From: an uncultured Anaerolineaceae bacterium
Lineage (GTDB): Bacteria; Chloroflexota; Anaerolineae; Anaerolineales; E44-bin32
Direction: 5' to 3'
Assembly (NCBI GenBank): GCA_964570595.1
Contig: CAZMZL010000001.1
Span: 33,653-79,986, forward strand
DNA length: 46,334 nucleotides
The notes below the pieces were generated by a model. It saw nothing but the letters and a program-made list of their open reading frames with translations. It was not told the DNA's origin and did not search any database. Shown here piece by piece: positions 1,641 through 39,785 of the stretch. A program made the translations under genes and the position numbers. The number at the start of each line of letters is the position of its first letter. Within the stretch, counting starts at the first letter, position 1.

Positions 1641-1850
1641 GCTGCCTCCGGAGGACCATGTTAAGATCATTGTAGCATGTTCCAAAAGGCGGAGTTCTAA
1701 TAGTGACAAGCATCATCCAATTTAGGATGTTCTTTTACACTACTAACTCTCCATAAAGATGACTAGACTTGATGGGGATTTTCCCGAGGGGTATTGCGCG
1801 CCCTTATTTGAGTGTTTTCCCTTAAAATACAGGCCAGTCAGGAGCCAGAT

Positions 1851-24774: not shown

Positions 24775-26009
24775 AAAAACGAATTGTGTTTATTGCCGAC
24801 GGACGAAGTCCTATCGCCCTTGGTTGGATGTCCCATTTTGTATCCGACGAATACGAAACCCACTTAATATCGACTTTTCCGTGCGAGCACCATCCGTCCA
24901 TTCACTCACTTCACATCGTTCCGGTGGCTTTCAGTGGGGCAGCGGGCTCGGGGGGACAGAAAACCGTCAGGGCTCCCGGAGGCGCCAGGGGCATCCGGGT
25001 CCGCAGTGCGGTTCGGCACTGGGTGGGGCCATTTACCGTTAAAAAGGCTTCTGCGAGGGTGGCGTCCATAATTCAATCGCTTTCTCCCGACCTTGTCCAT
25101 GCGCTCCGCATTCCTTTTGAGGGGATGGTCGCTGCAGGCGCCGATATCCACGCACCGCTCATCATCTCGGTTTGGGGGAATGATTTTACGCTGCATGCTG
25201 CGACCTCCCCTGGAATGAAGAGGCTCACGCGGGAAGCGATGGCACGCGCCGATGGTCTCCATACAGATTGTCAACGCGATGTTCGTCTGGCAACCCAATG
25301 GGGTTTTCGAGAGGCGGCATCCATCGTGCTGCCCGGAGGCGGAGGAATCAAGCGTGATATTTTTCACCCCGGACGGGTCATACCGGCGGGTATTGACGAT
25401 GAATTGGCGAAAAACCTGAGCGAAATTCCCTATGACGTTCCTGTCGTGATCAACCCCCGAGGCTTTCGCGCCTATGTGCGAAACGACACATTCTTCAAGT
25501 CCATCCCGCTGGTATTACGGGATGAACCCGAGGCGATTTTTCTTTGTGTCGGCATGAGAGATGAGAGCGAGGCTCACGCGTGGGTTCGGAGCCTGCAAAT
25601 CGAATCGAATGTACGCTTGTTACCACGAATGAGCCCGCGAGAAATGGCGGCGGGATACGGACGGGCGTGGGTCAGCGTTTCCCCATCTGAACACGATGGC
25701 ACCCCAAACACATTCCTTGAATCGATTGCCTGCGGATGTTTTCCCATTGTCGGTGATCTCGAATCGATGCGCGAGTGGATCGAGGCGGGGAAAAATGGTC
25801 TGCTGCTTGACCCGGGTGATCCACGGGCATGGGCGCAAGCCATCGTGCGTGCGATCAGGGATGACGACCTCCGCACAAGAGCAAAAAGCATCAACGAAGG
25901 ACTGATCGACGAGAAAGCTGATTATGGCTTGGTCCAGGCGAAAGCCAGGGAGTTTTATCGACATGTCCTGGACCAATACGATCCCGATATGCGAGCGAAC
26001 CATGTTTGA
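24771..26009 (+). CDS. Glycosyltransferase, GT4
   Basis: SEHDGTPNTFLESIACGCFPIVGDLESMREWI donor-binding motif. ATGA overlap with the previous GT. Confidence 0.75.
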   Translation: MKKRIVFIADGRSPIALGWMSHFVSDEYETHLISTFPCEHHPSIHSLHIVPVAFSGAAGSGGQKTVRAPGGARGIRVRSAVRHWVGPFTVKKASARVASIIQSLSPDLVHALRIPFEGMVAAGADIHAPLIISVWGNDFTLHAATSPGMKRLTREAMARADGLHTDCQRDVRLATQWGFREAASIVLPGGGGIKRDIFHPGRVIPAGIDDELAKNLSEIPYDVPVVINPRGFRAYVRNDTFFKSIPLVLRDEPEAIFLCVGMRDESEAHAWVRSLQIESNVRLLPRMSPREMAAGYGRAWVSVSPSEHDGTPNTFLESIACGCFPIVGDLESMREWIEAGKNGLLLDPGDPRAWAQAIVRAIRDDDLRTRAKSINEGLIDEKADYGLVQAKAREFYRHVLDQYDPDMRANHV

Positions 26010-27048
26010 AAAACTCGAAGACTATCCTGAAGCTACAATCCTCCATCACGTGGAACCCGACGGCACGTTGTGGGGAACCAGGGGGCGTTGGATTATTCGC
26101 CGGCGTGCCCAGTCTACATGGGAACGCATGAGTAAGTTTCCATTTGCAGTTCCACGCGACTTCTTTGGATTTTCACGCCCCACCGCAAGGGCGATGCGTG
26201 CGGATAAATCCAATCTGTTCGTGAACTCAAAAGGACGAACGCTCTGTATACGCGCTTCAAGCGTCTATGCGCTGGATGAAGATCAAAGTCTAAAACCACT
26301 TTTTGAGATTCAGGGGGACAGTGTCCTGCACGGTGGTATTTGTGAGGACGAGGAGGGCTGGACATACTTCGGCGAATATTTCATGAACTCTCAGCGACGA
26401 TCCGTCAGCATCTGGCGCGTCAACCCGGGTCTCGATGATTGGGAGGTGGCCTATGAGTTTCCCCCGGGGAGCGTGCGCCACATCCACGGTGTCTATCCGG
26501 ACCCTCATGACCCGGGCGCGTTATGGGCATGCACCGGCGACAATACTGGCGAATGCTTCTTCCTGCGGACGACGAATGCCTTTAGAACCATGGAAATGTT
26601 CGGCGACGGCAGTCAGTTATGGAGAACCGTACGACTTCACTTCACCGAAACCCATATTTGCTGGATTACGGATAGTCCGTTGGAGCAAAATTATGCTTGC
26701 AGGATGACGCGTGAAGACGGGGTTCTCGAACGAGGTCGTACCACCGAAGCGCCCGTATGGTATGGGGCTCAGACGGATGATGGGCTCCATATCGCTTTCA
26801 CGACAGTCGAGCCGGGCGCTTCGGTCAAGCGGAATACAGCCGCGGTATTGATCAGTCGAGATGGATTCGATTGGCAGGAGATCTACAATTTCAAAAAAGA
26901 TGCCTGGAGGCCCATGAAGCTTTTCAAATATGGGGTCATCAGTGTGCCTTCAGGGAAGATGAACAGCAAATCGGTATACATGAGCGGCGAAGGGCTGGTG
27001 GGTTTCGACGGTCGCAGTATGAAGGCATGTTTTGGAGAGAAGGAATAA
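26002..27048 (+). CDS. Hypothetical protein (beta-rich, possibly propeller-like), glycan-cluster associated
   Basis: ATG 26002 overlaps the upstream GT stop by 8 nt. Trp/Gly-rich strand-like periodicity and no recognisable catalytic motif. Confidence 0.55.
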   Translation: MFEKLEDYPEATILHHVEPDGTLWGTRGRWIIRRRAQSTWERMSKFPFAVPRDFFGFSRPTARAMRADKSNLFVNSKGRTLCIRASSVYALDEDQSLKPLFEIQGDSVLHGGICEDEEGWTYFGEYFMNSQRRSVSIWRVNPGLDDWEVAYEFPPGSVRHIHGVYPDPHDPGALWACTGDNTGECFFLRTTNAFRTMEMFGDGSQLWRTVRLHFTETHICWITDSPLEQNYACRMTREDGVLERGRTTEAPVWYGAQTDDGLHIAFTTVEPGASVKRNTAAVLISRDGFDWQEIYNFKKDAWRPMKLFKYGVISVPSGKMNSKSVYMSGEGLVGFDGRSMKACFGEKE

Positions 27049-27733
27049 ATTGATTCGCGGGTGGACTGCCGGGGTTTTAAAATGGGGCGAGCATTTGCTC
27101 GATGACAGCGTCGCGCCTTCTGAGCTGCTCGAGTTCCTCCAAAAAACCATTGTCAAGTTAAACGAACATCTCGAGCATCGCCCCAATGCATTCCCCGCAG
27201 CGATGATTCCGGAATTAGAGAGAGTCACTCTAGCTGTCGATGGGCCAAGATTATGTGTACCCGAATTTCGAGGCCAAACCGAAAGCCCTTCCGACGATGG
27301 ACCCTCGGCGGAAGAAATACGCATCTGGCGAGATTCCTTACCAGGTGGCCGTGTGCTTACGAAGGGTGGATTGGCGCATCAGACCGGAAGAATGCTCCTG
27401 GGGTTGTTGTCCACACAAGATCGATCCACCGACAGTTTCTATCATGATTCTATGGAACGGCTTCTAAGGCATGTCGAAGTTCAAAGAAAAGCTTGTCTGC
27501 AGCCTCATCCATCGCTGTCGTGGTCTGAAACGTGGATCGAGAAACATGATATTGCCTTCTTGTTCTGCGTGCATGCCAGAAAATCGTGCGATTTCAGGTA
27601 TCTCAATGGGGCCATGAAGCTCAATGACTGGGGGTGCCGCGCGCATCGCCGGAACGCATCGGTGGAACAAACCATGGGTCTGGTACGTGCGATTTTAGAA
27701 CAAGAGCGCATTCTTGCGGAGTTTTGGGGATGA
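27032..27733 (+). CDS. Hypothetical protein, glycan-cluster associated
   Basis: Start is TTG 27032 or TTG 27050, so uncertain. The stop overlaps the formyltransferase ATG (ATGA). No family recognised. Confidence 0.45.
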   Translation: MERRNKLIRGWTAGVLKWGEHLLDDSVAPSELLEFLQKTIVKLNEHLEHRPNAFPAAMIPELERVTLAVDGPRLCVPEFRGQTESPSDDGPSAEEIRIWRDSLPGGRVLTKGGLAHQTGRMLLGLLSTQDRSTDSFYHDSMERLLRHVEVQRKACLQPHPSLSWSETWIEKHDIAFLFCVHARKSCDFRYLNGAMKLNDWGCRAHRRNASVEQTMGLVRAILEQERILAEFWG

Positions 27734-28524
27734 TGCGATTGGTCTTATTCGCCCCTACCCGAAAGAGCCTTTACTCTAGAATTGTTGCACAAAGAATCCT
27801 GGTTGAGCCGGGGGTCAGCCTCAGTGCGATCGTCGTCCGATCGATATGGTCATTTCAGCGGTTCCGGTCCGAGCTGCGTCGGGATGGCCCGCGACTGTTG
27901 GGTAAAATCCGGACCAAGCTCGTTCTTGGTGAAGGGGCTCTGCCGGACAGCGAGGATAGTAAATCCACGGGAGCGGAGAGAGCAGCCGGCGATGATTTGT
28001 ATAAAATGGCGCGCCGGCATGGAATTCCATTTGCCTCAACGCCGGATCTGAACAATAAGCGGGTTGAATGTCAATTAGAGGATATCGCCCCGCATCTCAT
28101 CGTCTTTACGGGCGGGGGATTAATTCGATCGAATATTTTACATATTCCATCGCTGGGGGTCATGAACTGCCACTCAGGCATCCTGCCTCGCTACCGGGGG
28201 ATGGACGTCGTTGAGTGGCCCCTGTTGGAGGACGATGCCGAGATCGCTCAAATCGGGCTGAGCCTGCACTTCATGGACCGGGGCGTCGATACGGGGCCCT
28301 TGCTGCTGCAGCATCACGAGATGGTGCGAGCCGATGATTCGATCGAGGCGATCCGAACCAGACTTGAATCTCAGATGATCGAGTTGATGATGGAAGGAAT
28401 TCGCGGGCTCAAGAGCGGAACATTGAAACCGAGGCCCCAGATGGTTGACGAGGGGAAACAATATTACGTGATGCACCCTCGATTGAAGAGGATCGTCACG
28501 CGTAAACTTCGTGCTTCAATCTAA
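27730..28524 (+). CDS. Formyltransferase (sugar N-formyltransferase / Fmt N-domain-like)
   Basis: VMNCHSGILPRYRGMDVVEWPL carries the Asn-His-Asp formyltransferase signature. 264 aa, ATGA-coupled to the upstream gene. Confidence 0.8.
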   Translation: MMRLVLFAPTRKSLYSRIVAQRILVEPGVSLSAIVVRSIWSFQRFRSELRRDGPRLLGKIRTKLVLGEGALPDSEDSKSTGAERAAGDDLYKMARRHGIPFASTPDLNNKRVECQLEDIAPHLIVFTGGGLIRSNILHIPSLGVMNCHSGILPRYRGMDVVEWPLLEDDAEIAQIGLSLHFMDRGVDTGPLLLQHHEMVRADDSIEAIRTRLESQMIELMMEGIRGLKSGTLKPRPQMVDEGKQYYVMHPRLKRIVTRKLRASI

Positions 28525-28644: not shown

Positions 28645-30813
28645 ATGAAGCAGGTTGTGCAAGATTTTCGAACTGGATCCACGAGCGTGATCGATGTGCC
28701 CGTCCCTCAACTCAAGCCCACGATGGCGCTTGTACGGAATTCCGCATCACTGGTGTCGGTCGGGACAGAACGCGCACTTGTAGCGTTTGCCTCAAAAAAC
28801 ATCCTGGGAAAAGCTCGGTCTCGTCCGGATCTGGTTCGGCAGGTTGTCGATAAAGCGCGGCGCGAAGGAATTCTCACCACCATCGATGCCGTCCGGAACA
28901 GGTTGGATCATCCGCTCCCCCTGGGGTATTCCTCCGCAGGCACGGTTATCCAGGTTGGACCAGATCTTACCGATTACCAGGTGGGCGACCGGGTGGCCTG
29001 CGCAGGAGGGGGATACGCCGTGCATGCGGAGTACGCAGCCGTCCCCAGGAATTTATTGGCGAAGATACCCGAGAACGTTGATTTCGAGGCGGCCGCGTTC
29101 GCCACGCTCGGCTCGATTGCGCTCCACGGTTTCAGGTTAGCTGATCCAACACTTGGCGAATCAGTGGCGGTAATTGGGCTGGGCGTGTTGGGGCTTCTTG
29201 CGGCCGGGATCGCCAGGGCTGCTGGCTGCAAAGTTTTTGGGATTGATGTGGATCCCGAGAGAGTGGAATTTGCACAACAGCTTGGATTTGCGGCGGTCGC
29301 CCGCGACGAAGCCGAACCTGCGGGACTTGGTTTCACCAAGGGCATGGGGTTCGACATCGTTCAAATATGCGCGGATACACTCGAGGATGACACGGTCATC
29401 CTCGCCGGGGAAATCGCCCGAGATCGCGGCCGGGTCATCTCGACGGGTGTGGTCGGGACCGGGCTTCCGCGCAAAACTTACTTCCAGAAAGAATTGAGTT
29501 TTATCGTCTCTCGATCTTATGGACCCGGCCGGTACGATAAGAATTACGAAGAAGGGGGGGCGGATTACCCGATCGGATATGTGCGCTGGACGGAACAGCG
29601 CAACCTGTCGGCATTCCTCGAAATTTTGGCTGAGGAGGCTTTCGATGTGCATCCATTGATCAGCCATCGATTTCCTATCGAACGGGCGGAGGAAGCATAC
29701 GTACTTCTTTCTTCAGAGAATGCCGATCCATTTCTTGGTGTGGTCTTAACATATCCCGGGTCGGATCCTGATGCTGAACCGCCGGTGAGGAGGATTGCGT
29801 TATCGACCACGACCACGGGCGGCGGCGATGATGTCCGTTTGGGCGTGATCGGAGCGGGAAATTTCGCCAGAGCCGTGATGCTCCCCGTCATGCAGAGTTC
29901 CGGTGTACAGTGCGTCGGCCTTGCTGCGGCGAGTGGTTTGAGCGCCACAGAAACGGCGAAACGCTTTGGATTTGAGTATGCCGCGACCGCTTCCGATGAG
30001 ATTCTGGCAGATGACCGCGTAAATGCTGTGGCCATTCTCACTCGACATGATCTTCACGCCCCTCTCGTCCTACAAGCGCTCAAAGCGAACAAACATGTGT
30101 TTTGCGAAAAACCTCTGGCGCTCAATCAAGAGGATCTTCGCGCAATCGCCAAGACACTCGAGGGCTGTGATCGCATACTTGCCGTGGGCTTCAACCGGCG
30201 ATTTTCGCCCCACGCGCTCGAGTTAAAAAAGTTTCTTCATTCTGTGAATGAGCCACTTATTATGAATTACCGCGTCAACGCGGGTCTCTTGCCCCGGGAT
30301 CATTGGCTCCACGATCCAGTTCAAGGCGGAGGGCGCATCATTGGTGAGGGATGTCACTTCATTGATTTCCTCAGCTTCGTCGCTTCCTCTCCGATCGCGT
30401 CCGTCGTGGTCAAAGGAACGCCGTCGGATGATCGCTATCGGGAAGACAATGTCATCCTGATGCTGAAGTATCAGAATGGATCCCTGGGAACAATTACATA
30501 CGTCGCCAATGGCGACCGTTCGCTTCCAAAAGAGCGATTGGAGATATTCGGGGGCGGAAGCGTGGTAATCCTGGATGATTTCCGCAGGCTTGAGTTGAAC
30601 CGCAATGGGCGCAAGCGCGTACGTCAAAACCGCTGGCGGCAGGATAAGGGACACCGCCCGGAGTGGGAGGCCTTTATGCGCGCCGTGCGTGACGGCGGCC
30701 CACCACCCATACCCTACCAGGAAGTATTTGATGTCTCCCTGGCGTCGATCGTGGCACTGGACGCGCTGCGATCCGGCTCAGAAGTTCAATTCGAGCCGAT
30801 GTCTCTGACATAA
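28645..30813 (+). CDS. Bi-domain oxidoreductase: N-terminal MDR/zinc-ADH-like + C-terminal Gfo/Idh/MocA
   Basis: The N-terminal half has GDRVACAGGGYAVHAEY and VIGLGVLGLLAA. The C-terminal half has RLGVIGAGNFAR and EKPLAL (Gfo/Idh/MocA EKP motif). Confidence 0.85.
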   Translation: MKQVVQDFRTGSTSVIDVPVPQLKPTMALVRNSASLVSVGTERALVAFASKNILGKARSRPDLVRQVVDKARREGILTTIDAVRNRLDHPLPLGYSSAGTVIQVGPDLTDYQVGDRVACAGGGYAVHAEYAAVPRNLLAKIPENVDFEAAAFATLGSIALHGFRLADPTLGESVAVIGLGVLGLLAAGIARAAGCKVFGIDVDPERVEFAQQLGFAAVARDEAEPAGLGFTKGMGFDIVQICADTLEDDTVILAGEIARDRGRVISTGVVGTGLPRKTYFQKELSFIVSRSYGPGRYDKNYEEGGADYPIGYVRWTEQRNLSAFLEILAEEAFDVHPLISHRFPIERAEEAYVLLSSENADPFLGVVLTYPGSDPDAEPPVRRIALSTTTTGGGDDVRLGVIGAGNFARAVMLPVMQSSGVQCVGLAAASGLSATETAKRFGFEYAATASDEILADDRVNAVAILTRHDLHAPLVLQALKANKHVFCEKPLALNQEDLRAIAKTLEGCDRILAVGFNRRFSPHALELKKFLHSVNEPLIMNYRVNAGLLPRDHWLHDPVQGGGRIIGEGCHFIDFLSFVASSPIASVVVKGTPSDDRYREDNVILMLKYQNGSLGTITYVANGDRSLPKERLEIFGGGSVVILDDFRRLELNRNGRKRVRQNRWRQDKGHRPEWEAFMRAVRDGGPPPIPYQEVFDVSLASIVALDALRSGSEVQFEPMSLT

Positions 30814-30820
30814 AGCAGCC

Positions 30821-33040
30821 ATGTCTCCTCCTGTATTTCAGGCTGCACGTGAACTCGGGTTAGGTCCGCTGGCGCGATTCGCCCGCTATCAATTGGGGTT
30901 AAAATCAGGATGGTACCGCTGGCGTGCGCCTACATCCACATGGGATGATGTCCCGCTCAAATCCTCCCTGAGCAAAGGCGTCCCGATCACGCCTGGCGAA
31001 TACGCTGCTTTCCGTTCGGAAAATTCCCCTCCCTTCTTCTTCAATGATCCTCGTTCTTTACAGACCCAACTGATCGGCGTGCTGCTGGGGGGTCTCGGCG
31101 GTGGGATTCGCGAGGCCGAGGAGATCGTACAAGGTCGCTACCGCTTGTTTGGCATGGCTCCAATTCGATTGGGCCTTCCCCCTGATTGGGGCGCGTTTGC
31201 ACCCGTCCCCCATATTCCAGAATTCCAGCCCGTCCCCCTTGATAAACATTGGTCCAAATATTCGATCGACGATATGCCGGGGGATGTTAAGCTGCTGTGG
31301 GAGATCGCTCGCTTTGGATGGGTGTATGCTCTCTGTCGAGCGGATGTGATCACGGGCAAAGAGAAGTACTTCGAAACCTTCTGGAAATTGCTGAATTCAT
31401 GGCTTGCATCCAACCCTCCGAATACCGGCCCCCACTGGTATTCGGCTCAAGAAGTGGCCATCCGTTTACTCGGGACCGTGTTTGCAAACTATGCCTTCAC
31501 AGGGCAGATCCTGCTCGGAGATGAGCGTCAGGGCGTGATTACCCAGAGCATCGACGCATATGGACGACGAATAGCAATTACGTTGAGCTATGCACAAGCA
31601 CAGGGGAACAATCACCTGCTCGTTGAAGCCGTGGCGCTCTATACGGCGGGACTGCTCTATCCGGAGATGAAAAGGGCCGCTCGCTGGCGAGACCTGGGAA
31701 GGAAGTGGACAATCCATGCTCTCAGGCGCCAAATCTTTGAGGATGGCGGATATATTCAGCATTCAGTGAATTATCAACGCCTGGCCCTGCAGGCGGGCTT
31801 GTGGATTGCTCGGCTCGCGGGTATCCATCAAGAATCCCTTCCCGACGATGTCCTTGAGAATTTATGGAAGACGACCTCGCTTCTGCATGCGCTGGTGCAG
31901 CCCGAGAACGGTTGTGCACCGAATTTCGGTCCTAATGATGGCGCACAAATCTTTCCGTGGAGCACACGACCTATCGAGGACTTCCGGCCGACCCTGCAGG
32001 CTGCAGGTGTTTTATTTAAAGGTGTGCGGTTTTATGAACCCGGTCCGTGGGATGAGATGTGCATCTGGCTGGGTCTGGGTGAGACAGCAGAAGGGCTGGA
32101 TGTGGCGGAAGACGCAGGGACCCCACCTGGCAGGCGCATAACCTTCGAGGGAATCAGGGTTGAGCCCGCAGCCGATGCGGCAACAACTGCCGATGCAGGG
32201 GCATTCCCAGAGGCCGGTTTGTACATCATGTCCGGCCATCGAGCGCACGGCATCCTCCGGGCCGCGCACTTCACACATCGCCCGGGACACAGCGATCAAC
32301 TTCACTTCGATCTCTGGTGGCATGGCAGGAATATTCTTGTTGACCCGGGGAGCTATCTGTATAATGCGCCGCCGCCGTGGGAGAATGCCCTGGCTCTGGC
32401 GCGCTATCACAATACCGTGCTCGTCGACAATCAAGAGCCGATGACGCGCGCCGGAAGATTCCTGTGGCTTGACTGGGCGCAGGCCGAATTCATCGGTTCC
32501 TGGAAATCACCATCAGGGAAATCCGAGGTCCTTTCTTTCTGTCAAACTGGATATGAGCACCTCAAAGTCGTCCACCAGCGGACCGTAATCCGCATGGGGG
32601 ATGATCGCTGGATCATCGCCGACGACATTATCGGGGATGGGGACCAGGCACTGCGATTGAGTTGGTTGCTGGCGCATCTGCCCTGGCGTCGTCGAGAATG
32701 TGGGATTGAGTTGGAAGTAGGCACGGAGAGAGCCACCATCGATGTGGATGCTGGCGATTGCAGGATGGGCATCTATGCCGCGGGAACGCTCGTTGCAGGT
32801 GAAGAACTGGGGGAGCATGATCCTGTATCAGGGTGGTTTTCGCCGACGTATGCCGTAAAGACCCCGGCTCTTCAGTTGATCGTTCTCGTATCGAATACGT
32901 TGCCGGTACGGCTGTTGACGAGCATCACGTTCGGAGAAGATGAGAGCGGATCCGCTGAAGTAGCCTGGCGGCCCCCTGAAAAGGGTCAGCCGGCGCTGGA
33001 CCGACTCCTCTTCGATGAAGAGGAATTAGAAATCTCATAA
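30821..33040 (+). CDS. Heparinase II/III-like (alginate-lyase-superfamily N-domain) protein
   Basis: 739 aa. NNHLLVEAVALYTAGLLYPE and HSDQLHFDLWWHGRNILVDPGSY are typical of the Hepar_II_III family. Confidence 0.8.
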   Translation: MSPPVFQAARELGLGPLARFARYQLGLKSGWYRWRAPTSTWDDVPLKSSLSKGVPITPGEYAAFRSENSPPFFFNDPRSLQTQLIGVLLGGLGGGIREAEEIVQGRYRLFGMAPIRLGLPPDWGAFAPVPHIPEFQPVPLDKHWSKYSIDDMPGDVKLLWEIARFGWVYALCRADVITGKEKYFETFWKLLNSWLASNPPNTGPHWYSAQEVAIRLLGTVFANYAFTGQILLGDERQGVITQSIDAYGRRIAITLSYAQAQGNNHLLVEAVALYTAGLLYPEMKRAARWRDLGRKWTIHALRRQIFEDGGYIQHSVNYQRLALQAGLWIARLAGIHQESLPDDVLENLWKTTSLLHALVQPENGCAPNFGPNDGAQIFPWSTRPIEDFRPTLQAAGVLFKGVRFYEPGPWDEMCIWLGLGETAEGLDVAEDAGTPPGRRITFEGIRVEPAADAATTADAGAFPEAGLYIMSGHRAHGILRAAHFTHRPGHSDQLHFDLWWHGRNILVDPGSYLYNAPPPWENALALARYHNTVLVDNQEPMTRAGRFLWLDWAQAEFIGSWKSPSGKSEVLSFCQTGYEHLKVVHQRTVIRMGDDRWIIADDIIGDGDQALRLSWLLAHLPWRRRECGIELEVGTERATIDVDAGDCRMGIYAAGTLVAGEELGEHDPVSGWFSPTYAVKTPALQLIVLVSNTLPVRLLTSITFGEDESGSAEVAWRPPEKGQPALDRLLFDEEELEIS

Positions 33041-34299
33041 TGCACATACTTTTGGTTCATCAAGCCTTCGCCGCGCTGGGTGAGCCCGGCGGGACACGAC
33101 ATCACGAATTTGCACGCCAGCTTACACAGCGGGGACATCGCGTGACCGTGATCACGGGCCAGGTGAATTATTTAACCGGGGAAAAGAGAGCTACCCGTGC
33201 ATGGTTTGCGCGCGAAGTTGATGATTCGGGCGTTGAGATCTGGCGTTGTCGAAGCTATTCCGGCTGGCATAGGTCATTTTTTCATCGATTGCTTAGCTTC
33301 TTCTCGTTTATGATCACATCCTTCATGGTTGGGCTGCGCATCCCTGAAGTCACGCTGGTGTGGGGGACGTCCCCTCCAATTTTTCAGGCGGTGACGGCAT
33401 GGATGCTGGCGCGCTTGAAAGGCGCACCTTTCTTGTTGGAAGTTCGCGATTTGTGGCCATACTTTGCCATCGAGGTGGGGGTCCTCCGACAGCCGATCAT
33501 CATCCGCTTGTCTGAGTGGCTTGAACGCTTTTTGTACAAGCGGGCGGAGGGCCTGGTGATCAATTCGCCCGGGTTCATGGAGCATGTTTCTTCAAGAGGC
33601 GGCGAGCCCGTATTCCTCGTCCCGAACGGTGTGGATGTCGCCATGTTTGATCGAACGATTGGTGGAGAGGAATTCAGGAATGCGCATCATCTTCAGGATG
33701 AATTCGTCCTGCTCTACGCAGGGGCGCACGGTGTGTCGAATGATCTCGAAACCATCCTGGACGCCGCGCTGATTTTGAAAGAAGAGCCATCCATTCGTTT
33801 TGTTCTCCTTGGAGACGGGAAGGAGAAGGCCGCACTCAAGGAAAAGGCTCGAGAATATTCTCTGAGAAATGTGCTGTTTCTGCCGCCGGTCCCCAAGAAC
33901 GAGATCCCGGGCGCTCTGGCAGGTGCGGACGCCTGCGTCGCAATTCTCAAACCTATCGATGCCTATACGACCACATACCCAAACAAGGTTTTTGATTATA
34001 TGGCGGCCGGAAAACCGGTCCTTCTGATGATCGATGGCGTGATCCGGACGGTGGTGGAGGATGCTCATGCGGGAATCTTCATTAAACCGGGGGACGCCGT
34101 TGTTCTGGCGGCTGCTGTCCAGGAACTGGAAGCCGACCCTGCGCTCAGAGATCGACTTGGGAAAGCTGGGAGGAGATGCGTCGAGGAGCGCTTCGATCGG
34201 CCAGCTTTGGCCGGCGAGATGGAAGGGGTCATGATGGCGGTGGTCGCATCGAAGGGCGCGAAATTTCCTCAACGGAATGGAGATCGTGATTTGGGATGA
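33040..34299 (+). CDS. Glycosyltransferase, GT4 (WbuB-like)
   Basis: MHILLVHQAF...GGTRHHEFARQL..GH.VTVIT N-terminus as in WbuB-type enzymes. TAATG overlap with the upstream gene. Confidence 0.85.
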   Translation: MHILLVHQAFAALGEPGGTRHHEFARQLTQRGHRVTVITGQVNYLTGEKRATRAWFAREVDDSGVEIWRCRSYSGWHRSFFHRLLSFFSFMITSFMVGLRIPEVTLVWGTSPPIFQAVTAWMLARLKGAPFLLEVRDLWPYFAIEVGVLRQPIIIRLSEWLERFLYKRAEGLVINSPGFMEHVSSRGGEPVFLVPNGVDVAMFDRTIGGEEFRNAHHLQDEFVLLYAGAHGVSNDLETILDAALILKEEPSIRFVLLGDGKEKAALKEKAREYSLRNVLFLPPVPKNEIPGALAGADACVAILKPIDAYTTTYPNKVFDYMAAGKPVLLMIDGVIRTVVEDAHAGIFIKPGDAVVLAAAVQELEADPALRDRLGKAGRRCVEERFDRPALAGEMEGVMMAVVASKGAKFPQRNGDRDLG

Positions 34300-34922
34300 G
34301 TGATCTTCAAAAGAGTGTTCCGAGGCGAAAACGCATGTTTGATCTCGCATTGACGATCCCGGGGGTGGTCATCATAAGTCCGATTCTACTCTTGCTGGCG
34401 ATCTACATCCGCATCCGCCTGGGTCCCCCCGTTTTTTTTCGCCAGTTGCGCCCGGGGCTTGAAGGGAGGCCCTTTGTCCTGTACAAATTCCGGACGATGA
34501 CATCCGAGGTGGATCACCAGGGAAACCTACTTCCGGATTCACAGCGCATGACGTCTTTGGGACAATGGATGCGTTCCTTCAGCCTGGACGAGTTGCCCGA
34601 GCTCTTTAATGTGCTCAAGGGGGAAATGAGCCTTGTAGGACCTCGGCCTCTGCTCATGCAATACCTGGAGCGGTATACACAAGAACAGGCAAGGCGACAT
34701 GAAGTGCTGCCGGGGATCACCGGTTGGGCACAGATCCATGGCCGCAATGCGCTGACCTGGGAGGACAAGTTCCGCTTTGACACATGGTACGTGGATCATT
34801 GCTCTCTGCAGCTAGACATAAAGATACTGACGCTCACTTTTTGGAAGACGATCAAGCGGGAGGGGATCTCACAACCCGGGCATGCCACTTCGGAAGAGTT
34901 CATGGGGAGCGGAAACGAGTGA
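34296..34922 (+). CDS. Small monotopic phosphoglycosyl transferase (PglC/WbaP C-domain family, initiating sugar transferase)
   Basis: FDLALTIPGVVIISPILLLLAIYIRI re-entrant helix, P.FF.Q.R.G, KFRTM, DELPQ-like DELPELFNVLKGEMSLVGPRP. Confidence 0.85.
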   Translation: MSDLQKSVPRRKRMFDLALTIPGVVIISPILLLLAIYIRIRLGPPVFFRQLRPGLEGRPFVLYKFRTMTSEVDHQGNLLPDSQRMTSLGQWMRSFSLDELPELFNVLKGEMSLVGPRPLLMQYLERYTQEQARRHEVLPGITGWAQIHGRNALTWEDKFRFDTWYVDHCSLQLDIKILTLTFWKTIKREGISQPGHATSEEFMGSGNE

Positions 34923-35044
34923 GGAATATTTGTCCAGATAATGCACAGATTGCTCCGTATGAAAGAGTTGCAGAAATCCATGAAGAAGGGTAGGATGAGG
35001 GCTGGGTAGCACCCAAAATCATTCAATTGCCGAGGAGGAAAGAG

Positions 35045-35242
35045 ATGAAAGAGCCTTTGGAGTTTTATGACGTGAAGTCCAAGAGCAAATTTACAAGTTC
35101 AGAGTGGCGAATTGAGGTCAAAGAGTCGAATGGCCGCACGCGTTATTTTGCAGTTGCGAAGGTTCCCGAGGGGACGCATGAAGCATGGCGCATCGTGGGC
35201 GCCGATTTCGGCAAACAGAATATGGAACAAGGAATTTCCTAA
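35045..35242 (+). CDS. Small (65 aa) basic hypothetical protein
   Basis: ATG 35045 is preceded by GAGGAGG and followed by a strong intrinsic terminator. The beta-rich, Lys/Arg-rich sequence is not confidently recognised. Confidence 0.5.
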   Translation: MKEPLEFYDVKSKSKFTSSEWRIEVKESNGRTRYFAVAKVPEGTHEAWRIVGADFGKQNMEQGIS

Positions 35243-35265
35243 CACCCTGGTAAGGCAATGAATGG

Positions 35266-35371: not shown

Positions 35372-36295
35372 ATGATTCAGCTTAAGCACCAAGACCTTTA
35401 TCGCCAAATGCTGCGTATCCGTCGTTTTGAAGAGACGGTTCTCGATTCGTTTCCCCGCGGCCTTTTTTACGGCACGACCCATACTTACATCGGACAAGAA
35501 GCCAATGCCGTTGGGGTGCTCGCCTCGATGCAGGAGGGGGACATCGTGGTCAGCAACCATCGCTGCCACGGCCATTTCCTCGCATATGGCGGATCGATGC
35601 ACGCGCTCGCAGCGGAGCTCATGGGCCGCTCCACAGGGATTTGCGGCGGGCGAGGTGGAAGTCAGCATATCCAGTGGAAGGATTTTTATGCGAACGGCAT
35701 ACTCGGCGGCACTGTGCCGCTCGCGGTCGGTATGGCATTGGGCGAGCGGGAATCGGGGACGGGAAGGATCGTTTTTTCCTTTCTTGGCGATGGCACGTTG
35801 GGGGAAGGCGTCGTGTATGAGAGCTTGAACATGGCGTCGCTCTGGAACCTGCCGGTGCTCTTTCTGGTAGAGAACAATCGTTATGCACAAAGTACGCCCG
35901 TACACCTTCACCTGGCAGGTGAAATCACCACGCGATTCGAAGCCTTCGGCATCCCCGTGGAAGCCATGGATACCGTCGATGTTTCCTTGATTTCGGTCGG
36001 CGCCGATCGGGCGTCTAATCTTGTCCGGGAAGGCAGCGGTCCCCGGGCAATCGTGATGGATACCTACCGCTTTGCGCCGCACTCGAAAGGCGATGACAGT
36101 CGAGATCCGGAAGAAATCGCAAGGTTCAGGAAGAATGACCCCCTCCTGGTCCAGGCTGCCAGGATTGCGCAGGATGATCTGCAACCGATCGAATCCGAAA
36201 TCGAAGGTGAGGTGGTTGAAGCGTTCAAGCGCGCCCAGGCGGACCCCTTCGCCGACCCGAACCACCTCACAGCTCCAAGAGGGGTGAATCGATGA
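35372..36295 (+). CDS. TPP-dependent 2-oxoacid (pyruvate/acetoin-type) dehydrogenase E1 alpha subunit
   Basis: LYRQMLRIRRFEE N-terminus and the TPP motif GDGTLGEGVVYESLNMASLWNLPVLFLVENNRYA. Confidence 0.85.
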   Translation: MIQLKHQDLYRQMLRIRRFEETVLDSFPRGLFYGTTHTYIGQEANAVGVLASMQEGDIVVSNHRCHGHFLAYGGSMHALAAELMGRSTGICGGRGGSQHIQWKDFYANGILGGTVPLAVGMALGERESGTGRIVFSFLGDGTLGEGVVYESLNMASLWNLPVLFLVENNRYAQSTPVHLHLAGEITTRFEAFGIPVEAMDTVDVSLISVGADRASNLVREGSGPRAIVMDTYRFAPHSKGDDSRDPEEIARFRKNDPLLVQAARIAQDDLQPIESEIEGEVVEAFKRAQADPFADPNHLTAPRGVNR

Positions 36296-37281
36296 GAACT
36301 GTGCTGGAGGCGCTCAACGAGGGCATGCATGCCTGTTTGGCGGAGTCGGACAAAGTCTATTTCCTTGGCGAGGATATCCTTGACCCTTATGGTGGCGCCT
36401 TTAAGGTCGCTCGAGGCTTATCGAGCCAGTACCCGGGACAAGTCATCACCACGCCGGTTTCCGAAGCGGGCATTGTGGGGATGGCCGTCGGTATGGCGCT
36501 GCGGGGATACCGGCCAATTGTCGAAATCATGTTTGGCGATTTTCTCATGCTGGCGGCGGATCAATTGATCAATCATGCTTCTAAATTCCGCTGGATGAGC
36601 AATGATCGCGTCCACGTTCCATTGGTGGTTCGTACGCCCATGGGCGGAGGTCGCGGTTATGGTCCCACCCACAGCCAGACGCTCGAGAAACACTTGCTCG
36701 GAGCGCCGGGGATGCGGATCGTCGCGGTCACAACACTGATGGATCCGGCCGAACTCCTTCGTTCGGTAGTCTTCGAAGATGATGACCCGGTACTGTTCGT
36801 CGAACATAAGGCGCTCTATCCTGTTCAAGTTCAAGCATGGGATCAACAGGACTTCGATGTCCTGGTATCGGAGGATCGCTATCCGGTCTTCCGTTTGTGC
36901 ATTGCCGGCGCGCCCTCACCGAGCGCAACGGTCATGACCTATGGTTATATGGCAGAGATTGCACTGGAGGCGGCCCACCGGCTGGCTTATGAGCGCGAGG
37001 TGTTTATCGATGTGATCGCACTGACGGATCTGATTCCCGATGATGAATCTGTATTTGACGCGGTCGAGGAGACGGGTGTGCTGTTGACCCTGGAAGAGGG
37101 ATCCATCACCCTGGGATGGGGCGCCGAGATCGTGGCACGATGCTCCGAGCGCTTCAGGTCCCTGAAAACCCGCCGAATTGGAGCGCTTGATATGCCCATT
37201 CCGGCGGCAGGCACCCTTGAGCCGGCCGTCCTGCCGGGAGTGGATGATGTGATGAGCGCTGTCCTTGCGATGACCGGATAA
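36292..37281 (+). CDS. 2-oxoacid dehydrogenase E1 beta subunit (transketolase-like Pyr + C-terminal domains)
   Basis: VYFLGEDI..YGGAFKV..GL, TPVSEAGIVGMAVGMAL, RTPMGGGRGYGPTHSQ. ATGA overlap with E1 alpha. Confidence 0.9.
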   Translation: MRTVLEALNEGMHACLAESDKVYFLGEDILDPYGGAFKVARGLSSQYPGQVITTPVSEAGIVGMAVGMALRGYRPIVEIMFGDFLMLAADQLINHASKFRWMSNDRVHVPLVVRTPMGGGRGYGPTHSQTLEKHLLGAPGMRIVAVTTLMDPAELLRSVVFEDDDPVLFVEHKALYPVQVQAWDQQDFDVLVSEDRYPVFRLCIAGAPSPSATVMTYGYMAEIALEAAHRLAYEREVFIDVIALTDLIPDDESVFDAVEETGVLLTLEEGSITLGWGAEIVARCSERFRSLKTRRIGALDMPIPAAGTLEPAVLPGVDDVMSAVLAMTG

Positions 37282-37448
37282 TTTGGTCAAGTGCTCGATC
37301 GAAGGCGCCATTCGAGGGTCAATCCGTCTTCGAAGGAAATCAAAGAATCGGTCTGCGGACCTTTTCCTCATATGATTGCTTCGATCGGTAGAGGTGTACA
37401 ATACCCACCTCGTCCATGCCGTCATCCCCACAACCGAGAGGTCGAGGA

Positions 37449-38552
37449 ATGCCCGATCCAGTAGAAGTTCTTGTGCCACTTTTGAACCCGAATGAGCCCG
37501 AGGTCCAGGTGAGCGCCCTTCATGTTGAGGAGGGTCAGCGGGTGAAGGAGGGAGAGGTACTTTGCACGGTTGAGACCACGAAATCTACAGCAGAAGTCAT
37601 GGCCGAACAAGCCGGGTATGTCCTCGGGCTTGAGATATCCACGGGTGATCATATTCGAGCGGGCGCACGGCTGTGCTGGTTGGGACATGAGCCTGATTGG
37701 GAGCCACCCGAGCCCCCGGTTCAGATCGAACCTGAGAGAGGGGGAACCCCCCCGGAGGGGCTCCGCATTTCGCAGCCTGCGCTCGAACTTGCGCGCGAGC
37801 TGGGGCTTGATCTTGCCGATCTGCCGGTTGGACCTCTGGTTACGGAAGCGATGATTCAAAGAGCACAAACGAGCGAAGGAGGCGGTGCGTTGAGCGTACT
37901 TGAACAGGATTTTAACCCTCACTCGGTCATCATCTATGGCGGCGGCGGACATGGAAAAGCGGTCATCGATCTTGTTCGCTCACTTGGAACCTTCGAGATC
38001 GTCGGGGTCATTGATGATGGGATAGGCAAAGGCGAGCATGTCATGGATCTCCCCATATTGGGATCGAAAGATGACCTGACCGGCTTGCGCGAAAACGGTA
38101 TTCGTCTTGCCCTCAACGCCGTTGGGGGAGTGGGGGATGTTCACAGTCGTGTGGAGGTGTTCCGCAGATTGGCCCAGGCAGGATTCGCCTTTCCAAATCT
38201 CATCCATCCGACGGCATTTGTGGAACCGAGCGTGAAGCTCGATTCTGGTGTGCAAGTATTCCCACATGCATATGTCGGCAGCGACTCCACTGTCGGATTC
38301 GGTTGCATTGTCAATACAGCGGCTGTCGTTTCACATGATTGTACGCTGAGTTCCTATGTCAATGTGGCCCCGGGCGCCTTGCTCGCTGGCGGGGTGACGA
38401 TTGGTGAAGGGGTGCTGGTTGGGATGGGAGCAACGCTGAATCTTCATTTGAATGTAGGTCCGAATGCCCGCATTGGGAACAGCGCTGTGATTAAGGATGA
38501 TGTGCCGGCGGGTCAGATTGTCCGTGCCGGAAGTGTCTGGCCTGAAAGTTAA
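37449..38552 (+). CDS. Fusion protein: lipoyl/biotinyl-type carrier domain + peripheral-subunit (E1/E3)-binding domain + NeuD/PglD-family hexapeptide sugar acyltransferase
   Basis: Lipoyl-like domain about 37461-37685 with VETTKS (Lys codon 37581-37583). Pro-rich linker. PSBD-like ISQPALELARELGLDLADL about 37758-37865. NeuD/PglD N-domain VIIYGGGGHGKAVIDL plus LbH repeats with VVSHDC (His) about 37923-38549. The alternative ATG 37416 lacks an SD. Confidence 0.8.
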   Translation: MPDPVEVLVPLLNPNEPEVQVSALHVEEGQRVKEGEVLCTVETTKSTAEVMAEQAGYVLGLEISTGDHIRAGARLCWLGHEPDWEPPEPPVQIEPERGGTPPEGLRISQPALELARELGLDLADLPVGPLVTEAMIQRAQTSEGGGALSVLEQDFNPHSVIIYGGGGHGKAVIDLVRSLGTFEIVGVIDDGIGKGEHVMDLPILGSKDDLTGLRENGIRLALNAVGGVGDVHSRVEVFRRLAQAGFAFPNLIHPTAFVEPSVKLDSGVQVFPHAYVGSDSTVGFGCIVNTAAVVSHDCTLSSYVNVAPGALLAGGVTIGEGVLVGMGATLNLHLNVGPNARIGNSAVIKDDVPAGQIVRAGSVWPES

Positions 38553-38585: not shown

Positions 38586-39785
38586 TTGACGACCAAGCGT
38601 AAACTTGAAATTCCCATGTCTGCGCCCGATATTACGGATAGGGAGCGTAATGCGGTCCTGGACGTTCTGCGGACGGATCGACTGAGCATGGGGCCGAATA
38701 TTGCGGCGTTTGAGGTTGCAGCGGCTTCGCTGGTTGGCGTCAAACATGGTATTGCAGTGAGTTCAGGAACTGCGGGGCTGCATCTTTGTATCCGGGCTGC
38801 AGGTGTCCGTGATGCGGACTGGGTGATCACGACACCATTCTCCTTTGTCGCCACCGGAAACGTGATGCTTTACGAGCGGGCATACCCGATATTTGTGGAT
38901 GTGGATCCGGTGAGCGGCAATCTCGATGTCGACCTCGTGAAGAAGGCCGCAGTCGATCTGGTCCAGGGCGGCGCTTCGGTCGAGCGCTGGATGCCGCGAA
39001 AGGGTATTCGCGGGGAGGGGAAATTAAAAGCCCTCATCCCCGTGGATGTTTTTGGTCAACCCGCAGACTACGACGCCCTGCAGGAGATTACCGACACTCA
39101 TAATCTTGTCCTCGTTGAGGATTCATGCGAGGCCATCGGCGCGGAGTTCAATGGAAGGAAGGCGGGTTCGTTTGGAGACGCAGGTATTTTCGCCTTCTAT
39201 CCTAACAAACAGATGACGACGGGCGAGGGCGGGGTCATCGTCACCGATCGAGACGATTGGGCGGGAAAAATTCGTGCTCTCCGGAATCAAGGGCGCGCAC
39301 CCGGAGATACCTGGTTGGACCATGCATTCCTGGGGTACAACTATCGCATGGATGAAATGAGCGCTGCTTTGGGAAGGGTTCAGTTGACCCGGCTGGATGA
39401 ACTGGTCGAAAAGCGTGCGATCGTGGCATCCTTATATGCAGAAGGTCTCAAAGGAATGGGAGGCGTCGAAACGCCGGTTTTGCTCCCGTCCACCAGCCGT
39501 ATGAGTTGGTTTGTTTATGTCATCCGTTTACATCACGAGATCGATCGAGCGATGGTGATCCATCAATTGCGTGATCAGGGAATTCCTTCTCGTCCATATT
39601 TCTCGCCGATCCATCTGCAGCCATTCTACAAAGAACAGTTCGGGTATCGGGAAGGTGATTTTCCCGTCGCAGAAGATCTTGGAAGACGAAGTCTTTCCAT
39701 TCCATTCTCAGGAGTCATGAGCCAGAACCAGGTTGAGTATGTTTGCGAAACGTTAAGAGCGGTTCTGGCGAATACAGCGTATTAA
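38586..39785 (+). CDS. DegT/DnrJ/EryC1/StrS-family PLP-dependent nucleotide-sugar aminotransferase
   Basis: IPMSAPDITDRE, GIAVSSGTAGLHL, FSFVAT, DSCEAIGA, FAFYPNKQMTTGEGG (PLP Lys). TTG start with GGAG 6 nt upstream. Confidence 0.85.
   Translation: MTTKRKLEIPMSAPDITDRERNAVLDVLRTDRLSMGPNIAAFEVAAASLVGVKHGIAVSSGTAGLHLCIRAAGVRDADWVITTPFSFVATGNVMLYERAYPIFVDVDPVSGNLDVDLVKKAAVDLVQGGASVERWMPRKGIRGEGKLKALIPVDVFGQPADYDALQEITDTHNLVLVEDSCEAIGAEFNGRKAGSFGDAGIFAFYPNKQMTTGEGGVIVTDRDDWAGKIRALRNQGRAPGDTWLDHAFLGYNYRMDEMSAALGRVQLTRLDELVEKRAIVASLYAEGLKGMGGVETPVLLPSTSRMSWFVYVIRLHHEIDRAMVIHQLRDQGIPSRPYFSPIHLQPFYKEQFGYREGDFPVAEDLGRRSLSIPFSGVMSQNQVEYVCETLRAVLANTAY

Follow-up and report, generated by a model that had tools for sequence, protein, structure and literature searches.

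A lipoyl-acyltransferase fusion at the end of a glycan-biosynthesis cluster

We analysed a 46,334-nucleotide window of DNA from an uncultured Anaerolineaceae bacterium (GenBank assembly GCA_964570595.1, contig CAZMZL010000001.1, positions 33,653 to 79,986 of the forward strand), centring on a gene at 37449..38552 (+ strand; window coordinates throughout) whose product joins a lipoyl-type carrier domain to a sugar acyltransferase. The gene belongs to a five-gene cassette, which closes a glycan-biosynthesis cluster spanning 18329-39785. All on the plus strand, the cassette encodes a PglC-like polyprenyl-phosphate sugar-phosphate transferase (Bac_transf, 34296..34922; PF02397, E=1.1e-61), the E1alpha (35372..36295) and E1beta (36292..37281) subunits of a 2-oxo acid dehydrogenase, the fusion protein and a DegT/PseC/PglE-like sugar aminotransferase (38586..39785; DegT_DnrJ_EryC1, E=1.7e-107; TIGR03588 PseC, 305.8 bits, below the cut-off), which is expected to make the amino-sugar acceptor. 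The rest of the cluster contains a UDP-sugar dehydrogenase, a UDP-GlcNAc 2-epimerase, several family 4 glycosyltransferases (GT4), a formyltransferase-like protein, a fusion of alcohol dehydrogenase (ADH) and GFO oxidoreductase, and a heparinase II/III-like protein.

The fusion is encoded by a single unbroken plus-strand open reading frame (ORF; 37416/37449-38552). An in-frame ATG lies upstream at 37416, and since homologues begin with MPDP(V/I)EV, we took the ATG at 37449 as the true start, giving a protein of 367 amino acids (aa). Pfam coordinates were numbered on the 378-aa ORF that opens at 37416 and are converted to the 367-aa numbering by subtracting 11; on the longer ORF, the matches were Biotin_lipoyl (E=1.1e-11, aa 29-87), PglD_N (2.5e-11, aa 171-252) and Hexapep (1.3e-10, aa 309-342). 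The NCBIfam model TIGR03570 (NeuD/PglB/VioB) scored 180.9 bits, above its curated cut-off of 160.8. Four parts were confirmed: a lipoyl, or swinging-arm, domain (aa 1-79, 37449..37685), a linker, a helix pair resembling a peripheral subunit-binding domain (PSBD; aa 104-142, 37758..37874, between Pro/Glu-rich linkers) and a NeuD/PglB/VioB-type N-acyltransferase (37923..38552), the last composed of a PglD_N nucleotide-sugar-binding domain and a left-handed beta-helix (LbH). The lipoyl/PSBD extension that precedes the acyltransferase part amounts to about 155 residues.

Pfam detected no PF00198 (2-oxoacid_dh) catalytic domain in the fusion, and the C-terminal 210 residues consist of PglD_N plus Hexapep and match TIGR03570. 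A sequence-only reading of the window, made before any database search, had proposed that the catalytic core of an E2 acyltransferase is replaced here by a left-handed beta-helix sugar acyltransferase; these matches bear out that swap, and the domain map drawn in the same reading was right, with its further coordinates correct to within one codon. Because the defining PF00198 domain is absent, the protein lies outside the E2 family; formally it is a member of TIGR03570, and in composition it is a hybrid of both. An AlphaFold2 model of the whole fusion (mean predicted local distance difference test (pLDDT) score, 69.7), when searched against the PDB with Foldseek, retrieved E2 models, lipoyl domains, PerB, the PglB acetyltransferase domain of Neisseria gonorrhoeae (NgPglB) and VioB.

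It had also been considered that 37282-37448 might conceal a frameshift and that the fusion might really be two genes. This interval is the intergenic spacer between E1beta and the fusion gene, it hides no frameshift, and the same two separate genes occur in homologous loci. An artefact of this kind is ruled out by the continuous ORF and by an architecture kept in 120/120 homologues.

Conservation and distribution of the fusion

Residue conservation was counted on the best 120 of 1565 matches in the first database search. All of them show the domain order of the fusion at 52-87% identity, with lengths of about 365 aa except for one fragment of 305 aa; where named, they are annotated only as "NeuD family" or "EpsM" acetyltransferases. 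The fusion is thus confirmed as a conserved family and not an accident. A scan of one genome per species found relatives in 474 GTDB species, and the best 80 of these were, with one exception, all from Chloroflexota/Anaerolineae, mostly Anaerolineales. The window itself is 87% identical to two metagenome-assembled genomes from Anaerolineales, and a metagenome-assembled genome of Anaerolinea thermophila (L037) also contains the cassette. The exception (L007, JAIWHF010000009.1, labelled as a Methanosarcinales archaeon) has the complete cassette, 60-70% identical to Anaerolineales loci and fully syntenic with them, and is most likely a contaminating contig or binning error in an archaeal bin.

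A lipoyl-type domain with an invariant lysine

The candidate lipoyl-lysine is Lys45, encoded by AAA at 37581-37583 in the context TVETTKSTAEV, as the sequence-only reading had it. This lysine is invariant (120/120 homologues), and the positions of the surrounding E-T-T-K-S motif are kept in 100-120 of the 120 sequences. Also invariant or nearly so is a second motif, P-L-L-N-P-N-E-P-E (aa 10-18), whose position we take to be that of the loop beside the lipoyl-lysine recognised by E1 enzymes. In the AlphaFold2 model the domain is predicted with good confidence (pLDDT 84-95), and Lys45 sits in the hairpin joining strands 37-42 and 47-51. Foldseek matched human E2p L2 lipoyl domains at a TM score of about 0.7-0.8, although the fold alone does not separate lipoyl from biotin carriers. 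Profile searches against the PDB ranked E2 lipoyl domains (about 5e-11) ahead of biotin carriers (5e-8). Together with the lack of an MKM motif and the adjacent E1alpha and E1beta genes, this favours the earlier description of the carrier as more lipoyl-like than biotinyl-like. We rejected a biotinyl carrier on the missing MKM or (A/V)-M-K-(M/L) motif, the E1 context and the lack of a carboxylase, there being no carboxylase or carboxyltransferase in the cassette. Variation of the carrier lysine among homologues, which would have spoken against a carrier role, was not seen, and the invariance of this residue makes the suggestion that the domain serves as a non-redox docking scaffold for E1 less likely.

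The PSBD-like segment is the weakest element of the domain map. Pfam E3_binding matched it below threshold (best E=0.024) and in only 2/24 members, and a PDB profile search placed the PSBDs 2eq8_C and 1w4i within its six best matches but at E=0.3-0.5. Against this, hhalign comparison with nine PSBD sequences gave 84.6% probability (E=6.9e-6, 35 columns), in an alignment that implies a 3-residue loop deletion, and AlphaFold2 predicts two helices here (109-117 and 133-143). Family members also keep, with strong conservation, the motif L-R-I-T-x-P-A-L-x-L-A...L-P...L-V-T-E. We therefore keep the label PSBD-like on the strength of the hhalign and AlphaFold2 evidence, standard hidden Markov models (HMMs) being sub-threshold; the segment, as first proposed, is moderately supported. 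It is a probable docking site, presumably for E1 and possibly for E3.

An acyltransferase domain with a possibly altered donor pocket

The closest solved relatives of the acyltransferase part are PerB (4ea7, E=1.7e-36), NgPglB (4m98, 1.5e-35), VioB (7txp, 1.2e-27) and PglD (3bss, 5e-23). All four enzymes depend on acetyl-coenzyme A (acetyl-CoA) and N-acetylate nucleotide-linked 4-amino-4,6-dideoxy-hexoses. The VVSHDC motif, which had been picked out as the site where PglD carries its catalytic histidine, is present, and its His296 (codon CAT at 38334-38336) aligns exactly with the catalytic histidine of PglD, PerB and VioB in HMMER alignments of the PDB profile matches.

Residue roles established for VioB (PMC9271549) were mapped onto the fusion through the HMMER alignment. 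His296, Asn289 and Gly314 align with VioB H135, N128 and G153, and His296 also with PerB H141; all three are invariant among the 119 sequences that have a residue there, and D297 is kept in 117/120. In the nucleotide-sugar-binding domain, the loop Y163-G-G-G-G-H-G-K170 is invariant or nearly so among the 120 homologues and, with the conserved D189/D190, G229 and R234, aligns with VioB G8/G11, D32/N33, G67 and R72. With its sugar-binding features kept, the domain still looks like a sugar acyltransferase.

On the donor side, aligned residues differ. In VioB the side chains of R170, R189 and K206 neutralise the CoA phosphates, although most contacts to CoA are made by the backbone (PMC9271549). 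In the fusion, R170 aligns to the invariant N331, which is not basic, and R189 to the variable position 350 (S/Q/E/A/D), while K206 falls past the C-terminus, the tail after W364-P365 being 0-2 residues in 78/120 sequences. The arginines of PerB likewise align to non-basic positions, T329 and 350. The family has invariants of its own (M326, N331-L332, N344 and W364) and two near-invariants (K349 and P365, each 119/120). The AlphaFold2 monomer, in which the beta-helix is of low confidence (pLDDT 50-70), was not used for judging this pocket. The absence of basic residues at the CoA-phosphate positions fits an enzyme that has stopped binding the 3'-phospho-ADP moiety of CoA, which is suggestive and not decisive. 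The earlier expectation that the CoA-binding residues are degenerate thus holds for VioB R170, R189 and K206, none of which has a basic counterpart, and is qualified by K349, which adjoins one of these sites.

These observations bear on the simplest alternative, that the protein is an ordinary acetyl-CoA-dependent PglD/NeuD acetyltransferase whose lipoyl-like and PSBD-like parts dock or regulate, for example by scaffolding E1 or by sensing redox state or pyruvate. The TIGR03570 cut-off is passed, all catalytic residues of the CoA-dependent enzymes are kept, backbone contacts dominate CoA binding in VioB and K349 could bind a CoA phosphate. We nevertheless consider an ordinary acetyltransferase quite unlikely, since the positions of VioB R170/R189 and of the PerB arginines are not basic and the C-terminal tail is short, and since an invariant hairpin lysine (120/120) and a co-inherited, apparently intact E1 (81/83 loci) are hard to explain for a scaffold.

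Association with E1alpha and E1beta

E1alpha matched Pfam E1_dh (E=1.7e-54) and scored 262 bits with TIGR03182, below the cut-off of 393.85; its ORF opens at 35258 and homologues start near MIQLKHQ at 35372. The closest solved structure is human pyruvate dehydrogenase (PDH) E1alpha at 158 bits, with branched-chain E1s at 93 bits or less. The subunit retains the GDG...NN motif for thiamine diphosphate (ThDP) and the histidine of the (G/P)-H-S loop ('PHS' in the window), a residue that takes part in the reductive acylation of lipoamide. E1beta is a normal Transket_pyr/Transketolase_C protein, with pyrimidine-binding (3.1e-31) and transketolase C-terminal (2.4e-15) domains and PDB matches to 1ik6, 1um9_B and 3exe_B at E about 1e-43 to 1e-45. 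Judged by these motifs, the E1 is apparently able to carry out catalysis. Neither subunit reaches the curated cut-off of its PDH equivalog model, and pyruvate is accordingly a candidate substrate.

The pairing of E1 with the fusion is nearly obligate. E1beta lies directly upstream of the fusion in 81/83 loci and E1alpha is present in 73/83, most of the others being contigs that end just upstream. Bac_transf is found upstream of E1alpha in 58/83 loci and the DegT aminotransferase directly downstream of the fusion in 59/83.

Other components of a 2-oxo acid dehydrogenase complex are missing from the neighbourhood. A Pfam scan of nearly all non-overlapping window ORFs of at least 150 aa found no Pyr_redox/E3 (dihydrolipoamide dehydrogenase), lipoate ligase, LipA/LipB or 2-oxoacid_dh, in agreement with the sequence-only reading, which had noted that the window lacks an E3, a lipoate ligase and a canonical E2. 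All-against-all ORF clustering of 84 loci likewise yielded no conserved E3, LplA, LipA/LipB or canonical E2. The lack of an E3 for recycling a redox-active arm, in the window and in the conserved neighbourhood, is a further point in favour of a CoA-dependent enzyme. Nor did the cassette, the window or the conserved surroundings contain the catalytic domain of a canonical E2, which leaves no enzyme close by that could hand an acyl-lipoyl group on to CoA. The window does encode a complete pyruvate:ferredoxin oxidoreductase (PFOR; 1812-5429, + strand; POR_N, POR, EKR, Fer4 and TPP_enzyme_C), so the E1 of the glycan cluster need not be the housekeeping pyruvate oxidiser.

Two further explanations for the presence of E1 can be weighed on this evidence. 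E1alpha, E1beta and a lipoyl/PSBD-bearing acyltransferase make up a minimal PDH gene set, and the fusion could be a true E2 replacement in a variant PDH, moving acetyl groups from lipoyl to CoA-SH for central metabolism. This seems extremely improbable given that the cassette lies inside a glycan cluster, with a sugar-phosphate transferase on one side and a sugar aminotransferase on the other, that the PglD_N domain and its conserved nucleotide-sugar residues are kept, and that PFOR is present for central pyruvate oxidation with no E3 linked. Alternatively, E1alpha/beta might add a two-carbon branch directly to a keto-sugar nucleotide, as has been proposed for the AviB1/AviB2 and Plm8/Plm9 systems, the lipoyl domain being vestigial or unrelated. 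E2-less E1alpha/beta homologues in deoxysugar pathways do add a pyruvate-derived two-carbon side chain (PMC4802897). The AviB and Plm systems, however, have no lipoyl partner, whereas here the lipoyl lysine, the E1-facing loop motif and the PSBD-like docking element are conserved and E1alpha keeps the histidine for reductive acylation of lipoamide, which makes direct branching of the sugar very improbable.

A second family and a change of carrier

An exhaustive profile search with the lipoyl/PSBD module across 1.84 billion representatives returned 70 clusters at E<=1e-30. We found a second family of fusions (P0238, P0266 and relatives; 477-521 aa) in which a related lipoyl domain is joined to a WcaF/CatB-like LbH acyltransferase with no PglD_N. 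Its lysine is invariant within E-[TS]-[TS]-K-[AS], and its N-terminal motif reads P-R-[LI]-N-A-N-E-D-E. E1alpha and E1beta genes precede these fusions in 4/4 informative contexts (L084, L086, L087 and L091; P0238, P0277, P0288 and P0291). In the first three, the neighbours are a UDP-GlcNAc 2-epimerase (Epimerase_2) or clusters with NeuB and a CMP-transferase (CTP_transf_3), that is, nonulosonic-acid clusters; L091 has no nonulosonic-acid genes within its flanks. Compared with the E1 subunits of the window, those of the second family show 49-55% (alpha) and 43-45% (beta) identity, which is far closer than any housekeeping E1, and the E1s of both families form a dedicated clade.

Homologues of the second family that have no lipoyl domain (P0275 and P0283; L088 and L089) are 49-57% identical to it and are found at the equivalent position of comparable clusters, but downstream of an acyl carrier protein (ACP) and an FkbH loader, the latter scoring 317 and 297 bits with TIGR01686 against a cut-off of 146.65. 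One acyltransferase clade is therefore paired either with ACP and FkbH or with lipoyl and E1alpha/beta, which suggests that the lipoyl domain acts as an acyl carrier for the fused transferase. This exchange of carriers is the strongest comparative argument for the lipoyl arm as acyl donor, and it stands against the view that the domain only docks or regulates a CoA-dependent enzyme.

The same comparison raises the question of which acyl group is carried. The system might operate as we propose below but with an E1 that uses a 2-oxo acid other than pyruvate and a group other than acetyl (glycolyl from hydroxypyruvate, propionyl from 2-oxobutyrate or formyl from glyoxylate), in which case its purpose would be to attach an uncommon N-acyl group that the cell does not hold as a CoA thioester. 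Where PFOR already yields acetyl-CoA there seems to be little need for a second route to acetyl groups. Moreover, E1alpha scores well under the PDH cut-off and clades with the second-family E1s, the second-family cluster L087 already has a standard PglD-like acetyltransferase, and the lipoyl-less homologues use FkbH and ACP, a glyceryl-type and thus non-acetyl donor. The closest solved E1alpha is nonetheless that of human PDH, with a clear lead over branched-chain enzymes, and no auxiliary gene for an unusual 2-oxo acid is conserved in the cassette. On balance we regard a non-acetyl group as unlikely in this family, yet as a serious contender.

A model for lipoyl-dependent acylation of an amino sugar

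The reading that we favour, with somewhat better than even confidence, is that E1 loads lipoyl-Lys45 with an acyl group derived from pyruvate or a related 2-oxo acid, and that the fused acyltransferase then passes this group to a 4-amino sugar linked to a nucleotide. The five-gene cassette would then be a self-contained machine for amino-sugar N-acylation within a cell-surface glycan cluster, which we hold to be fairly probable.

In this scheme, ThDP-dependent E1alpha/beta would decarboxylate a small 2-oxo acid, most likely pyruvate, with hydroxypyruvate, 2-oxobutyrate and others as possible substrates, and would reductively acylate lipoyl-Lys45 while the fusion is tethered to E1 through its PSBD-like segment. 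The S-acyl-dihydrolipoyl arm would next enter the inter-subunit donor tunnel of the presumably trimeric beta-helix and occupy the place that the pantetheine of acetyl-CoA takes in PglD, PerB and VioB. There, a nucleotide-linked 4-amino-4,6-dideoxy-hexose, the predicted product of the DegT aminotransferase, would lose a proton from its C-4 amine to His296, and the acyl group would move to the sugar with the oxyanion stabilised by the backbone of Gly314. The product may then pass to the PglC-like transferase, starting a lipid-linked glycan, and an E3 or some other oxidant, its gene lying elsewhere, would return the dihydrolipoyl arm to its oxidised form.

Several observations weigh against this scheme. 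PFOR supplies acetyl-CoA, so the advantage of a CoA-independent acetylation is hard to see, and a functional CoA pocket is possible because K349 adjoins the VioB R189 site and CoA contacts are largely made by the backbone. The HMM scores for lipoyl and biotinyl carriers are close (33.7 versus 31 bits), E-T-T-K-S deviates from the usual D-K-A lipoylation context, and lipoylation of Lys45 is a prediction from sequence. By standard HMM criteria the PSBD assignment is weak, as is the AlphaFold2 confidence for the beta-helix. With no gene for E3 or lipoylation in the window or the conserved neighbourhood, the arm would be left reduced after each turnover and would depend on an oxidant from elsewhere. 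Finally, the fusion has no adjacent E1 in 2/83 loci, L048 (5926-7110) and L069 (1188-2309). Both of these retain an intact E-T-T-K-S. Neither has an E1 downstream or in the available upstream sequence, which covers about 5.9 kb for L048 and 1.2 kb for L069; a distant E1 gene or another way of loading the arm might account for this.

Extended to both families, the model would give lipoyl-lysine arms a part in glycan tailoring, as carriers that supply acyl groups with no CoA thioester involved. It would apply to no fewer than two LbH subfamilies, PglD-type in glycan clusters of Anaerolineae and WcaF/CatB-like in nonulosonic-acid clusters, with lipoyl arms interchangeable with ACP/FkbH and perhaps installing non-acetyl groups such as glycolyl or propionyl; we would give this broader proposition an even chance.

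Other genes of the neighbourhood

Between Bac_transf and E1alpha lies a 71-aa ORF (35027..35242, + strand) with no Pfam or NCBIfam match. A homologous ORF of 66-71 aa occupies the same position in 29/84 loci (for example, L029 3685-3885 and L022 3313-3681).

In some loci, E1beta and the fusion gene are separated by gaps of 1.3-2 kb. The idea that an E3 is hidden there was rejected, as these gaps encode zinc-ribbon/transmembrane/NHL-like proteins, tetratricopeptide repeat proteins or EamA transporters. The first kind is an insert of about 425 aa with an N-terminal CxxC...CxxC zinc ribbon, a transmembrane segment and NHL-like repeats, which is not an E3; it occurs in L035 (4721-5992), L037 (4700-5986), L045 (4706-5995), L049 (4697-5986), L053 (4709-5989) and L079 (4720-5991). 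A built-in oxidoreductase was likewise considered for P0172, a metagenomic protein of 323 aa in which a family-type lipoyl N-terminus is joined, midway through PSBD-like helix 1, to a nitronate monooxygenase/flavin mononucleotide (FMN) domain. The position of the junction inside this helix points to a probable assembly chimera, and the candidate was rejected.

Upstream of the cassette, the window carries at 28645-33040 (+ strand) a 722-aa fusion of Zn-alcohol dehydrogenase and GFO/IDH/MocA domains followed by the heparinase II/III-like protein (739 aa), and then a GT4 gene (33040-34299). In 23-26 loci the heparinase-like and GT4 genes are conserved together ahead of the cassette, and L002 has the ADH/GFO fusion upstream. 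The formyltransferase-like gene of the cluster lies at 27634-28524. Three ORFs of the cluster (22356-23651, 25924-27048 and 27032-27733, + strand) have no Pfam or NCBIfam match and may encode a polymerase, a flippase or novel tailoring enzymes.

Comparison with known systems

No description of a lipoyl-PglD/NeuD or lipoyl-hexapeptide fusion was found in the full-text literature, with most subscription journals outside the coverage of this search. The cassette is apparently an uncharacterised, though widespread, variant that joins two well-known kinds of system. If the proposed mechanism is right, it would be the first 2-oxo acid dehydrogenase-type assembly with a left-handed beta-helix as its E2 core and with a modified sugar, not an acyl-CoA, as its product. 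Lipoic acid, whose classical use is to our knowledge limited to five complexes of central metabolism, would take on a function in making cell-surface glycans. The mechanism would also explain a cassette of hundreds of Chloroflexota species whose fusion protein is now annotated only as "NeuD/EpsM acetyltransferase". As a general principle, some sugar N-acyltransferases would draw on carrier-tethered donors, lipoyl or ACP, and this principle could help to predict which bacillosamine-like and nonulosonic-acid sugars bear uncommon N-acyl groups.

Compared with the E2 components of PDH, acetoin dehydrogenase and branched-chain 2-oxo acid dehydrogenase, the fusion is similar in that it begins with a lipoyl domain whose lysine lies in a hairpin, continues through flexible Pro-rich linkers and a candidate PSBD in the form of two helices, and is encoded directly after E1alpha and E1beta. 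E2 cores are trimeric with active sites at the subunit interfaces, and the catalytic domain of the fusion is expected to be arranged in the same way. Unlike E2, it has PglD_N and a left-handed beta-helix in place of the CAT-like PF00198 domain, E-T-T-K-S in place of D-K-A, a loop in the PSBD-like segment that is 3 residues shorter and no linked E3, and its predicted acceptor is an amino sugar where that of E2 is CoA.

[quoted passage not shown] It differs from them in its lipoyl/PSBD extension, its pairing with E1alpha/beta and its W-P C-terminal end, and from VioB and PerB in the non-basic residues found at positions aligned to the CoA-phosphate-binding Arg/Lys. The AviB1/AviB2 and Plm8/Plm9 systems (PMC4802897) also place PDH-type E1alpha/beta genes in a sugar cluster, with pyruvate as the source of the two carbons; they form a C-C bond on a keto-sugar and have no lipoyl protein, whereas here the E1 genes are partnered by a lipoyl-bearing N-acyltransferase.

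The nearest putative functional analogue of the cassette is QncN/QncL/QncM (SclQ1-4) of the naphthyridinomycin/quinocarcin-type and scleric acid pathways. There, an ACP receives a glycolicacyl unit through the joint action of a ThDP E1-like enzyme and a lipoyl/E2-type protein (PMC6335953). In both systems a dedicated ThDP E1-like enzyme loads, or is predicted to load, a lipoyl arm whose acyl group goes to an acceptor other than CoA, as part of secondary or tailoring metabolism. QncN/QncL/QncM use a canonical E2-type acyltransferase, an ACP acceptor and, in transketolase-like fashion, a ketose phosphate donor, whereas the cassette has an LbH sugar acyltransferase and a predicted nucleotide-sugar acceptor; there is no E2-type catalytic domain or ACP in the cassette, and the resemblance to QncN/QncL is in system logic only. 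The FkbH, ACP and LbH modules of L088 and L089 are alike in that a carrier-tethered thioester would serve as the donor for an LbH sugar acyltransferase. Their carrier is a phosphopantetheinyl ACP, unfused and loaded by FkbH, and its counterpart in the window is a putative lipoyl-lysine, fused to the transferase and predicted to be loaded by E1.

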